Shown here in pieces: positions 16,101 through 19,274 of a stretch of DNA of 64,000 bases (positions within the stretch are counted from its first letter, which is position 1; each line of letters opens with the position of its first letter). Both the position numbers and the translations under genes were made by a program. This DNA is from Escherichia phage vB_VIPECOOM01. A model generated the notes under the pieces. It saw only the letters and a list, made by a program, of their open reading frames with translations. It was not told where the DNA came from and did no database searches. The stretch lies in sequence record OQ721909. One strand, 5' to 3'.

Positions 16101-16301
16101 ATGGTGCAAAAATTAATGGCACTTGTTAATGCCATCAAAGGTAATAAAAAACGTATAGCTTTTACTATTTCTGCTATGATAGGAATTTTACTTTGGAATT
16201 TTGTTTTATCGCCAGTTGCTATTGCTCATGGCGTTAGTATTCCAGTAATTACTCTTGATACATTCGTAGATTTAGCATTTGCTTTAGTTGGGTTAATTTA
16301 A
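16101..16301 (+). CDS. small two-helix membrane protein (plus strand)
   Basis: 66 aa, hydrophobic; AGGAGG SD 4 nt before ATG; fills the 56/61 gap where T4 carries segF; 3' end converges on gene 61. Confidence 0.45.
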   Translation: MVQKLMALVNAIKGNKKRIAFTISAMIGILLWNFVLSPVAIAHGVSIPVITLDTFVDLAFALVGLI

Positions 16302-17326
16302 ATCTTAGCATATTTAGATAGCCGCATTTTAGCCATCAACCCTTGGGCAATATTATTTTTCATATATTCCATAATTTGTTCAGGGGTTGCACCTTCCTTT
16401 CTAATCATATCATTAACATCTTTTGATTTCCAGGGAGATTTGTCCCAAAACATAACCCTTTCTCCTGCATCAACTAATTTAGTCATTCGTTTAATAGTGT
16501 CAGGGTGACGAGGTTCATTATCTAAAACCCATACACGTCTATCTTTAAATGGAACAATTTCTAGGTCTAATTGGCCACCCGTAATAGCTATACCATTTTC
16601 AATAAAAAGTGAATCTATAGGTCCTTCTAGAACATATACATCACCATCTTTAACCCGTTCGACACCATAGATTTTTGTTGCCTCAGGATAAGCTTTGATG
16701 GTGATATATTTTTGAGGAGCATCTTTCTTTAATGCACGTCCTTGAAAAGACTCAGCTTTTCCATTAGCATTATAAATTGGAATAACAAGACGAGGCTCAG
16801 GTATTTCCTTTTTATATGTTCCTGGTGCTATACTATTAACTAATTTAGGCCATTCGGTTGTAAACCAAAGATATTTCCATTTATCCTTTGGAATACAGCG
16901 AGCTTTTACATATTTTATAATTGGATGGTCTTCCGTCAGTTTATCTAATCTAATACATGACGGAAGAGATTTAATTATTTTCTTCTCAGGTTGTTTAGGA
17001 AGTTCTTTAGGTTTTTCTACTGGACGACTTTTACCTTTTTCTTTTCTTATTTCAAAGATATACTCACGATATAAATCAGGTTCAAACTCCTTTAAATATA
17101 TTCCGATTGGTGCATGATAGTTACAGTTATAACAATGAATATTTCCTTCATTATTATCACCATAATACCATCCACGGGCTTTATTTTGGTCGGTTTTTGA
17201 ATCTCCACAAACAGGGCATCTAAACCGCAATTTAAAAGTTGAACTATTATTTACTTGTGTGAATTTAGGTAAATGAGCCAATGCACGGTATGCAAACTCA
17301 TTATCAATCCAAGGTATTGATGACAT
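16298..17326 (-). CDS. 61: DNA primase gp61
   Basis: 342 aa as T4 gp61; zinc ribbon CPVCGDS...CYNC; ATG checked. Confidence 0.9.
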   Translation of the reverse strand: MSSIPWIDNEFAYRALAHLPKFTQVNNSSTFKLRFRCPVCGDSKTDQNKARGWYYGDNNEGNIHCYNCNYHAPIGIYLKEFEPDLYREYIFEIRKEKGKSRPVEKPKELPKQPEKKIIKSLPSCIRLDKLTEDHPIIKYVKARCIPKDKWKYLWFTTEWPKLVNSIAPGTYKKEIPEPRLVIPIYNANGKAESFQGRALKKDAPQKYITIKAYPEATKIYGVERVKDGDVYVLEGPIDSLFIENGIAITGGQLDLEIVPFKDRRVWVLDNEPRHPDTIKRMTKLVDAGERVMFWDKSPWKSKDVNDMIRKEGATPEQIMEYMKNNIAQGLMAKMRLSKYAKI

Positions 17327-17328
17327 TT

Positions 17329-17493
17329 TTACTCTTCTTTTTCTTTAGATTCCTCTTTTTTCTTTTTAGGAATCTGTTCAGGGCCTTTATTTACTACAGC
17401 ACCTGATGTTGTTCCAGTAGAGATATTTTCAGGATTACCGCCTGAATCTCCAGCTACCATATCTTCTTTAATAAATTCTTTATATGTTTTCAT
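17329..17493 (-). CDS. candidate capsid-targeted internal peptide (54 aa), missing from the ORF track
   Basis: Hand translation MKTYKEFIKEDMVAGDSGGNPENISTGTTSGAVVNKGPEQIPKKKKEESKEKEE; N-terminus matches the CTS of ipII/ipIII in this window; GAGG SD; frame checked. Confidence 0.45.
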   Translation of the reverse strand: MKTYKEFIKEDMVAGDSGGNPENISTGTTSGAVVNKGPEQIPKKKKEESKEKEE

Positions 17494-17494
17494 A

Positions 17495-17851
17495 TTAACC
17501 TCTATTCATAAAAGCATTAAAAATTTGGTCATCAATCGATGGAATAGCAACCTTTTCTACATCATTTAACAAATCATTAATTTCGTCAGATAGCATAACG
17601 CATGTACCTTTATTTCCTGTAATTGTTACTGCGCAATTACGAACGTTTTCTTTATCAAATTTTAGGTTAATATTTTCGTAGTGAAAATCCTTTAATGCCG
17701 AATATATTTTTAAAATGAAATTGTCTTTTACTACAATAAACCCAACCTCACTATTAAAACGTGGTTCATGGAAACTGTAATAAACCTTTTCATCTATAAA
17801 ATCGTATGAAATTTTTTCCATTTTTAAATATGAAAATTCAGAACTATACAT
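17495..17851 (-). CDS. hypothetical protein (61.1 position)
   Basis: 118 aa; last 12 codons and stop are nucleotide-identical to the next ORF. Confidence 0.45.
   Translation of the reverse strand: MYSSEFSYLKMEKISYDFIDEKVYYSFHEPRFNSEVGFIVVKDNFILKIYSALKDFHYENINLKFDKENVRNCAVTITGNKGTCVMLSDEINDLLNDVEKVAIPSIDDQIFNAFMNRG
17500..17536. repeat. 37-nt direct repeat, copy 1
   Basis: ctctattcataaaagcattaaaaatttggtcatcaat, identical to 17858..17894. Confidence 0.8.
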
Positions 17852-17852
17852 A

Positions 17853-18479
17853 CTAATCTCTATTCATAAAAGCATTAAAAATTTGGTCATCAATAGAAAC
17901 ATTCACTTTAGACTGTTTTTCTGATGTCAATTCATATCCGCATATTACAATTTTGTGATCAATATCAAAATATGCAGAAGCAATATGATTAATGATGTTT
18001 TCAGTAAAGTCTAAATCAACATCAATATCTTTTTGACCACAACCTAAAGGATAAATAATGCGAGTAATTCGATTATCTTTAACAAAGATTCCACCGACAT
18101 ACTCAGTGTTACGTTTAAAGTCTACACGCCGACGAAATGAAAAATATTCAGGCTCTTTATGAGCTCGGCTCATAGGACACAACGAGTAACTAGAGTAAGA
18201 GATGTCAAATCCTACGCCTTCAATATGAGCCAAAGTATCATGATTAAACCAATTATAATCGTACGCCAAGTCCATTAGATTATAATATGTAAAAGGCACC
18301 GGATTAACATCATTAGTCACAAGCATGTAATTAGCAACTGCTATAATTTCGTTGTTTTTAACGAATACAAACCGTGATTGATGCGAATGACCTGGACCCG
18401 CGTTTTCACGATTAATGATATAACACTGGGCACCTTTATATTTGTATGTATCTTTGCACTTGTGCATTTGATAGAGCAT
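17853..18479 (-). CDS. hypothetical protein (61.2 position)
   Basis: 208 aa; shares C-terminal SIDDQIFNAFMNR with 17495..17851. Confidence 0.45.
   Translation of the reverse strand: MLYQMHKCKDTYKYKGAQCYIINRENAGPGHSHQSRFVFVKNNEIIAVANYMLVTNDVNPVPFTYYNLMDLAYDYNWFNHDTLAHIEGVGFDISYSSYSLCPMSRAHKEPEYFSFRRRVDFKRNTEYVGGIFVKDNRITRIIYPLGCGQKDIDVDLDFTENIINHIASAYFDIDHKIVICGYELTSEKQSKVNVSIDDQIFNAFMNRD
17858..17894. repeat. 37-nt direct repeat, copy 2
   Basis: Identical to 17500..17536; encodes the shared C-terminus of the 61.1/61.2 ORFs. Confidence 0.8.
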
Positions 18480-18772
18480 TATTCACCTACCACTTCAGCG
18501 ATGATATTTTTATTATTAAAGTTTTTATCGCAATATAGAACATAATTATACTGCATTACACCACCAGACTTAAGCTGTTTTTGCACTTCAGCTTTCATTT
18601 CAGGACGATCACGCTCAACGATATTCATAATATCTGCTTCAATTTGAGTTTCAACTTCAGTCTGATCTGCAGTCATAGACCATTCACACAAGTCTTTATC
18701 ATAACCTGCCATAGCAGGCTGAGCAGCGCAAGAAGATAAAGCAAAAATTGCAGCAAAGATAAATTTTTTCAT
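18479..18772 (-). CDS. sp: periplasmic Spackle-like protein
   Basis: 97 aa with signal peptide MKKFIFAAIFALSSCAAQPAMA; length and position match T4 sp. Confidence 0.55.
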   Translation of the reverse strand: MKKFIFAAIFALSSCAAQPAMAGYDKDLCEWSMTADQTEVETQIEADIMNIVERDRPEMKAEVQKQLKSGGVMQYNYVLYCDKNFNNKNIIAEVVGE

Positions 18773-18832: not shown

Positions 18833-19132
18833 TTATTTTAAAACTTCTGCATAATCACATGTTACAAACTGTTTCTCTAACTTGATGATTTTACGAAAGT
18901 ATCTTTTACATTGGCGAATCTGTCGCTTCGTAGGGCGCACAGCAAACTTAATAAATTCCACTCGACCAAATGGAGGACTTTCTTCTGCTGGAATATCTAA
19001 CACCAATTCCCACGTATCCGCAATAAGTGCCTTGAATTGAGTATTTTTCCTGACGTTATACGGAGTAGGTTTAAATAAAACAATGTGCATATTATCCTCG
19101 GCAATCAACTTCACATACTTTCTTATCATCAA
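18833..19132 (-). CDS. basic small protein (61.4 position), possible TifA-like RNA-binding anti-toxin factor
   Basis: 99 aa with basic C-terminus; directly downstream of dmd; assignment from position and memory. Confidence 0.35.
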   Translation of the reverse strand: MMIRKYVKLIAEDNMHIVLFKPTPYNVRKNTQFKALIADTWELVLDIPAEESPPFGRVEFIKFAVRPTKRQIRQCKRYFRKIIKLEKQFVTCDYAEVLK

Positions 19133-19274
19133 TGAAAGCTTTAACTAGTGCTTTATTAACTTCAGCATATTGAGTAGTAGCCCATTGAACGTCATCTTTC
19201 ATCATTGTGATTTCTTTAGTAAACATGCTTTCATTCTTAAACCACCCCATAAAAACTACCTTTACCAATTCCAT
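19092..19274 (-). CDS. dmd: Dmd, antitoxin against RnlA/LsoA
   Basis: 60 aa, length and position (between 61.x and 41) as T4 Dmd. Confidence 0.65.
   Translation of the reverse strand: MELVKVVFMGWFKNESMFTKEITMMKDDVQWATTQYAEVNKALVKAFIDDKKVCEVDCRG

Follow-up and report, generated by a model that had tools for sequence, protein, structure and literature searches.

A coding tail shared by two tandem genes of the T-even anti-toxin island, and its probable part in the gain and loss of a 118-amino-acid gene

The direct repeat and the two genes that it closes

The DNA analysed here, called the window below, is a stretch of 64,000 nucleotides (nt) of Escherichia phage vB_VIPECOOM01 (OQ721909). It is Tequatrovirus DNA, which matches Escherichia phage vB_VIPECOOM03 at 100% identity and many Tequatroviruses at about 97%. 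Two tandem genes lie on its minus strand between sp and gene 61.1: adfA (T4 gene 61.2), which codes for anti-DarT factor A, and a gene of 118 amino acids (aa) that T4 does not have. Both end in the same short coding sequence, and this shared tail, with recombination between its two copies, probably drives the gain and loss of the 118-aa gene as a cassette.

A 37-nt sequence, CTCTATTCATAAAAGCATTAAAAATTTGGTCATCAAT, occurs exactly at 17500-17536 and again at 17858-17894, as a sequence-only reading of the same DNA had reported, and the window holds no third copy when up to three mismatches are allowed. Two matches to this 37-mer were reached in 0 of 100 dinucleotide-preserving shuffles. The open reading frames (ORFs) that the repeat closes, of 118 and 208 aa, also agree with that reading. 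The repeat copies and the two genes are as follows.

17500..17536, minus strand: repeat copy 1 (exact, 37 nt), spanning codons 106-117 (IDDQIFNAFMNR) of the 118-aa gene plus base 1 of its codon 118
17858..17894, minus strand: repeat copy 2 (exact, 37 nt), spanning codons 196-207 of adfA (61.2) plus base 1 of its codon 208
17491..17539, minus strand: extended copy 1, 49 nt; Ser codon, tail, GGT, TAA, T, and the ATG of 61.1
17849..17897, minus strand: extended copy 2, 49 nt; Ser codon, tail, GAT, TAG, T, and the ATG of the 118-aa gene
17495..17851, minus strand: 118-aa gene, not in T4; phrog_4122; equivalent to RB32 ORF033c
17853..18479, minus strand: adfA (T4 gene 61.2), anti-DarT factor A, 208 aa; 198/208 identical to T4 gp61.2

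The repeat had been taken to encode the last 12 codons and the stop of both ORFs. The IDDQIFNAFMNR codons do lie within it, followed by the first base of the last sense codon; the last codon as a whole and the stop fall outside the exact 37-mer. A repeat search extends the similarity to 49 nt (17491-17539 versus 17849-17897), of which 46 (94%) are identical, and the start-to-start period of 358 nt equals the 357-nt gene for 118 aa plus a 1-nt spacer. In the coding direction each 49-nt copy reads TC(G/T) ATT GAT GAC CAA ATT TTT AAT GCT TTT ATG AAT AGA G(G/A)T TA(A/G) T ATG. It comprises the final 13-14 codons with their stop and, after a single base, the start codon of the gene that follows. 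The Ser codon ahead of the exact 37-mer differs synonymously between the copies (TCG versus TCT), and the last residue and stop differ as well, being Gly GGT TAA in the 118-aa gene and Asp GAT TAG in adfA. The C-terminal peptide shared by the two proteins is (S)IDDQIFNAFMNR(G/D).

What the sequence-only reading had not noticed is that the ribosome-binding site (RBS) and the start codon of the downstream cistron also lie in the repeat. Read from the sequence, AGAGG in extended copy 1 is the Shine-Dalgarno sequence of 61.1, and a G to A change weakens the corresponding site of the 118-aa gene to AGAGA in extended copy 2; GAGA in place of GAGG hints at lower or coupled translation of the short gene. 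Within the 64-kb window the Shine-Dalgarno-ATG junction motif TAGAGGTTAATATG was found at these two sites only, with up to two mismatches allowed, and this confinement discards a generic RBS consensus as the source of the repeat.

The 208-aa ORF matches the Pfam family AdfA (PF23813) over residues 1-207 with E = 4e-133 and 441.7 bits (cut-off 27), and is thereby a full-length member of the AdfA family; its identity as the anti-DarT factor had also escaped the sequence-only reading. DarT1 is bound by AdfA when position 164 is His (PMC11257639/PMC11825919). The AdfA of the window carries His165, the equivalent of RB69 position 164 (R164H), so that in its length, its 95% identity to T4 AdfA and its His at the DarT1-binding position it resembles the characterised protein. 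In one class of relatives adfA is mosaic: the match to the window reaches only to about 18313, and an RB69-like N-terminal part of ~55 residues (MIYYMHKNPPFKY... instead of MLYQMHKCKDTYKY...) is joined to a T4-like remainder, which suggests a recombination breakpoint within the gene.

States of the locus and evolution of the tail

A query of 17200-18600 (1401 base pairs, bp) matches 525 phage records, and the matches fall into discrete span classes. The full-length class of 1401 bp has both genes, a span of 1043 bp (1401 minus 358) has adfA only, 786 bp has the 118-aa gene only and 428 bp has neither; a further class has both genes with a different 5' part of adfA. Approximate counts among the 525 records are ~160 with both, ~183 with adfA only, ~137 with the short gene only and ~45 with neither, derived from the records that match the 118-aa body (297), the adfA 3' body (343) and both repeat copies (about 162). 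Both genes are present in the window, NR1, ECML-363, Sf21 and a metagenome contig from ENA. The order is sp-adfA-61.1 in T4 and SholemSchwarzbard, sp-118aa-61.1 in pSs-1 and T2, and sp-61.1 in RB10. Five IMG/VR contigs with the 25-nt core of the tail, too few for statistics, divide into three with adfA only, one with the short gene only and one with both. This four-state polymorphism sits among phages that are otherwise ~95-97% identical.

The sequence-only reading had proposed that the 118-aa gene is a cassette bracketed by direct repeats and that relatives with a single copy be sought. Both points are borne out: relatives exist that lack exactly one 358-bp period, and T4 and many others have one copy of the repeat and are shorter by exactly that length. 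In T4 and SholemSchwarzbard the junction runs from the adfA body (ending GTTTCT) through the 37-mer to GTTAATATGAAAAC at the start of 61.1, and GTTAATATG of 61.1 follows the 37-mer in T4 and many other single-copy phages. An exchange at any point of the repeat would be expected to yield just such a junction. T4 AdfA itself ends in Gly, as expected if its end comes from the downstream copy.

The tail is retained well beyond the close relatives of the window. Two divergent clusters of the short form (50% and 40% identity) keep the ends IDDQIFNAFMKRG and SIDDQIFNAFMNRG, and AdfA of RB69 (Mosigvirus) ends in SVDDQIFNAFMNRG. The slot after sp is filled in Gaprivervirus (SP18, PSD2001) by two genes, first one of 146 aa and then a short-form gene of 117-119 aa, both ending in DDQIFNAFMKR(D/G). 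The order of the pair is kept between the window and Gaprivervirus, with the upstream gene ending in Asp (GAT) and the downstream gene in Gly (GGT). From these comparisons the tail is best described as a family hallmark, native to all members of both gene families. The C-terminal module swap offered by the sequence-only reading is accordingly not needed, as the tail is native to both families, including relatives of 40-50% identity in another genus.

At the nucleotide level the tail varies at synonymous sites: GAT/GAC at both Asp codons, CAA/CAG, TTT/TTC, AGA/CGA, GCT/GCC/GCA and ATT/ATA. Within Tequatrovirus a 25-nt core, CAAATTTTTAATGCTTTTATGAATA, is invariant in 13/13 tails examined, and the two Asp codons form a GAT/GAC mosaic across genes and genomes. 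Compared over 39 nt, the tails of long and short genes differ at 0-4 positions within Tequatrovirus and at 2-6 within Gaprivervirus, and tails from the two genera differ at 7-10 positions whatever the gene type. At four codons the two genes of a genus agree with each other, with CAG, TTC, AAG (Lys) and CGA in the Gaprivervirus pair and CAA, TTT, AAT (Asn) and AGA in the Tequatrovirus pair. Since the synonymous sites vary by lineage and not by gene, constraint on the peptide alone is inadequate to account for the identity of the copies. Furthermore, the short forms of Tequatrovirus and Gaprivervirus are clear orthologues, with 50% identity over their full length, and the two-gene arrangement is therefore older than the split of the genera. 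Clustering of the tails by genus and not by gene type, in an arrangement that predates this split, indicates that the tails evolved in concert, presumably through gene conversion or recurrent recombination.

The variable slot lies in a conserved gene context. The minus-strand order in the annotated T4 record is 41, dmd, 61.4, sp, 61.2, 61.1, 61, and an anti-toxin-antitoxin island made up of adfA (61.2), tifA (61.4) and dmd (61.5) has been proposed for T4 (PMC9391042). The neighbours in the window are as follows.

17329..17493, minus strand: gene 61.1, 54 aa; 52/54 identical to T4; its ATG and Shine-Dalgarno sequence lie inside extended copy 1
16298..17326, minus strand: gene 61, DNA primase; conserved downstream flank
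18479..18772, minus strand: sp (spackle, 61.3); conserved upstream flank of the variable slot
about 18833-19090, minus strand: tifA (61.4); another anti-toxin gene of the island
19092-19274, minus strand: dmd (61.5); another anti-toxin gene of the island

The labels 61.1/61.2 given to the repeat-bearing ORFs in the sequence-only reading hold for the 208-aa ORF, which is 61.2. They do not hold for the 118-aa ORF, and the annotation is corrected here: the true 61.1 is the 54-aa ORF at 17329-17493, which that reading had singled out as a 'candidate CTS peptide' gene; no finding of the analysis bears on such a peptide. The 54-aa protein also matches the C-terminal third of the 156-aa PHROG family phrog_2086 (E = 3e-16), and 61.1 of RB69 has 92 aa with an N-terminal extension (1818-2096 of the RB69 locus); because of this match and the 92-aa protein, 61.1 appears to exist in long and short forms. 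In two Gaprivervirus loci a 73-aa gene (2356-2577 and 2314-2535) lies directly downstream of the short AdfA-like gene, and its protein shares ARPTKRQIR with TifA/61.4 of the window (VRPTKRQIRQCKRYFRK). A TifA-like gene may thus occupy another position in Gaprivervirus, and the gene order of the island may be shuffled.

The 118-aa gene and its relation to AdfA

The 118-aa ORF is a real gene under purifying selection. Compared with a 74%-identical orthologue from a metagenome contig, its ratio of nonsynonymous to synonymous substitution rates (dN/dS) comes to 0.27 for the whole gene and to 0.32 when the tail is left out. Matches to the body of the gene occur in 297 phage records, and in 290 of these the nucleotide identity is 95-99%; the low dN/dS and this occurrence are what establish it as a gene. 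The adfA 3' body is more diverse, with 110 records at 95-99%, 135 at 90-95% and 97 at 80-90%, and the low diversity of the 118-aa gene relative to adfA would fit a cassette that spread recently within the genus. The protein family is narrow, since an exhaustive HMMER search with the 118-aa protein against 1.8 billion representatives returned three clusters only. No prior description of a short AdfA paralogue was found in the literature searched.

The 118-aa protein resembles the AdfA family in its C-terminal tail and in scoring above the Pfam cut-off, and differs from it in being about half as long and in that the score depends on the tail. With the tail, PF23813 is matched at 33.3 bits (gathering cut-off 27), residues 22-118 aligning with profile positions 113-211 in the C-terminal half, and precomputed PF23813 hits exist for 5/5 cluster representatives of the protein. 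The same Pfam search with the last 14 residues removed gives no hit. The sequence-only reading had called the two ORFs otherwise different, which calls for a qualification, as a weak, ambiguous similarity exists outside the tail. The tail-trimmed protein matches AdfA weakly in BLASTP (E = 0.021), and hhalign places it, also after trimming, collinearly over 84 columns on AdfA residues 96-184 in the C-terminal half (P = 0.0025 and 0.001). With a broader profile of the short family the alignment falls on the N-terminal half instead, over 36 columns (P = 0.0018), and centres on the motif hφVK(D/N)NxI. The strand order in AlphaFold models of low confidence (pLDDT 56 and 66) is compatible with the C-half alignment. 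Homology of the body of the 118-aa protein to AdfA is plausible but unproven, and the tail is the sole robustly shared element of the two genes.

AdfA holds the hφVK(D/N)NxI motif twice, as FVFVKNNEII and GIFVKDNRIT (residues 37-48 versus 131-142), and its N-terminal and C-terminal halves align with each other in hhalign over 39 columns (P = 4e-4). AdfA may have arisen by internal duplication of a domain of ~100 aa, of which the 118-aa protein may be the single-domain version.

Because of its position in the island, the family tail and the weak AdfA-like motif, the 118-aa protein would most likely, on a tentative view, be a further toxin-neutralising factor with a different specificity. In T2 it is the product of the only AdfA-like gene. 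The AdfA papers describe T2 as a phage without adfA and do not count the 118-aa gene as an adfA homologue.

Recombination between the tails, its alternatives and its parallels

Our preferred reading is that the repeat is the conserved 3' end of two tandem genes of the T-even anti-toxin island, and that its copies would be held alike by three forces. Strong purifying selection on the tail peptide, the first of these, is shown. The last tail codons, as read from the sequence, would in addition be constrained by their overlap with the downstream RBS, and repeated gene conversion or recombination between the copies, to which the concerted evolution of the tails points, would be the third. T4-type phages have very high recombination rates, and because they recombine so actively a direct repeat of 37-49 nt would act as a crossover site. 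Intramolecular or unequal exchange within it would remove one 358-bp unit, the 118-aa gene, and leave an intact adfA fused to the end of the downstream copy, which is the T4 arrangement. When phages with different arrangements co-infect a cell, exchange would restore the cassette, and the same exchanges would homogenise the two tails. The outcome would be the combinatorial set of states: both genes, adfA only, the short gene only or neither. Indeed, deletions and tandem amplifications at homologies of 6-10 bp, leaving one repeat copy at the junction, are known from the same island of T4 (PMC9391042).

Several observations weigh against this reading or parts of it. The recombination events are deduced from sequences, and deletion from a two-gene ancestor would fit as well as insertion. 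The phages in the short-only and neither states (pSs-1, T2, RB10) have a 12-nt spacer, TAATTAGAGG(T/C)TA(G/A)T, after sp. This spacer resembles the end of the tail-plus-Shine-Dalgarno junction, and no simple exchange of present-day sequences derives it from the arrangement in the window, so that the proposed exchange would account for only part of the history of the locus. The reciprocal product of the proposed exchange, a tandem duplication of the cassette, appears only in Yersinia phage phiD1, beside runs of N. Most synonymous changes that are specific to a genus go from A/T to G/C, and parallel compositional drift could contribute to the pattern of the tails, although the shared Asn-to-Lys replacement is not accounted for by such drift. 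As to the bodies of the two proteins, the Pfam match is lost on trimming, the hhalign matches are weak (P = 0.001-0.003) with a best-matching AdfA half that switches between runs, the AlphaFold models are of low confidence, and Foldseek against BFVD gives weak hits only (TM <=0.44, root-mean-square deviation above 10 Å). Finally, T2 with adfN deleted forms no plaques on DarTG1 cells, and on this indirect evidence the short gene is probably no effective factor against that DarT1 in T2 at native levels. The AdfA of T4 itself likewise fails to neutralise that DarT1 (PMC11257639/PMC11825919).

Two attempts to derive particular arrangements were given up. Production of the short-only and neither junctions by a single microhomology deletion (GAATAA/GAATAG) predicts a junction that mismatches the observed one. 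The phiD1 record (HE956711, 1890-2860) has four 25-nt cores and two 118-aa genes with many Ns between them; we rejected it as a reciprocal tandem duplication on account of the Ns at the junction, and it is probably a mis-assembly provoked by the repeat.

Among other explanations, a real though lesser possibility is that the tail is a portable C-terminal module on otherwise unrelated proteins, gained for a function of its own (for example, as a binding helix) and for the downstream translation signals. Such a module would fit the want of an AdfA Pfam hit in the tail-trimmed 118-aa protein, the shrinking of the similarity to the ~36-column VKDN motif with the more diverse profile (P = 0.0018) and the match of phrog_8539 to the last 30 residues only. 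The 146-aa gene of Gaprivervirus, which shares the tail alone, without detectable body similarity, lends it some further weight: the resemblance of its body to AdfA (P = 0.51) and to the short family (P = 0.15) is not significant. However, an in-frame graft of 13 codons onto unrelated genes is improbable, every tail-bearing gene sits in one slot, between sp and 61.1, and the pair in the window aligns collinearly over 84 columns that end exactly at the tail (P = 0.001-0.0025), with a predicted strand order that agrees in the low-confidence models. Rapid divergence of counter-defence proteins would, moreover, erase similarity between the bodies. A passive repeat, whose identity came from selection on the peptide and the RBS together with A/T codon bias and which had no role in recombination, the insertions and deletions being unrelated to it, seems quite improbable. 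Genomes of the T4 type differ by exactly one period with the junction inside the repeat, and synonymous sites that vary between genera and lineages nevertheless co-vary between the two genes of one genus; these facts are set against a peptide that is invariant across the family and whose last codons overlap the Shine-Dalgarno sequence, and against the biased codon usage of T4, all of which a passive repeat would accommodate.

The layout of a whole gene between direct repeats, with empty sites in relatives, also recalls a mobile element with a target-site duplication or the exchange of a regulatory cassette of the PeSL type, both of which we regard as very improbable. Searches of Pfam and PHROGs revealed no transposase, integrase or homing-endonuclease domain in or beside the gene, the matches of the insert and its neighbours being confined to AdfA and families of unknown function; the supposed duplication is functional coding sequence that is also found in single-gene genomes and in other genera. 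Promoter-like sites number 17 against a shuffle expectation of 16.2 and terminator-like sites 2 against 1.4, with none at the borders, neither copy has a stable RNA structure (z from -0.65 to +0.40 versus shuffles), and only 1 nt separates the genes, which belong to one operon. To an assembly artefact, a repeat collapsed or expanded in one genome, we give next to no credence: the phiD1 record, with its N runs and four core copies, illustrates that the repeat can confuse assemblers, but both copies occur in about 160 independent phage records, the two-copy layout is colinear at ~97% in dozens of independently sequenced phages (Shfl2, RB18, RB32, slur phages), and it recurs in metagenome contigs from ENA and IMG/VR.

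Recombination between the shared tails, as we prefer to read the locus, has close parallels. The dmd-tifA amplifications in T4 (Srikant, Guegler & Laub, eLife 2022, PMC9391042) concern the same phage group and the same island, and there too a segment between direct repeats is lost or gained. Those events arose in the laboratory at chance microhomologies of 6-10 bp, whereas the repeat described here is 37-49 nt long, functional and evolutionarily maintained, and underlies a natural polymorphism across hundreds of isolates. In PeSL shuffling (Arbiol et al. 2010, PMC2839356; Comeau et al. 2014, PMC4122927) recombination likewise takes place at short conserved sequences where genes meet, and small non-essential genes are thereby inserted, deleted or replaced in plastic regions of near-identical genomes. 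However, PeSLs are non-coding cassettes of promoter plus terminator, and the element in the window is the end of a reading frame with a translational junction inside an operon. As in the general phenomenon of concerted evolution of tandem paralogues, a segment stays near-identical within a genome and diverges between lineages; what differs is that the tract is only about 40-50 nt long and coincides with a selected peptide, so that selection and conversion are hard to separate.

A stronger claim, that the tail and the Shine-Dalgarno-ATG junction form a dedicated, selected recombination handle, a coding counterpart of PeSLs or of integron attC sites, strikes us as unlikely. If it were true, long (AdfA), short (118-aa) and 146-aa Gaprivervirus cassettes would be shuffled combinatorially in the anti-toxin-antitoxin island during co-infection, and the 118-aa protein would inhibit a yet unidentified DarT variant or another toxin.

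The mechanism that we favour is unsurprising, as T4-type phages are well known for direct-repeat recombination and modular shuffling, and the locus is an ordinary, known kind of T4-type genome plasticity, a well-populated natural example within a counter-defence island. The modest new point, as we infer it, is that a conserved coding tail with its translational junction serves as the recombination site, in place of a non-coding cassette. An uncharacterised gene, which about 57% of Tequatrovirus records carry, T2 among them, is placed in the T-even anti-toxin island with dmd, tifA and adfA. Recombination between the tails would explain, at the level of the sequence, the ready gain and loss of adfA and its short neighbour in phages that are nearly identical, and this may be relevant to host-range prediction for therapeutic T4-like phages.

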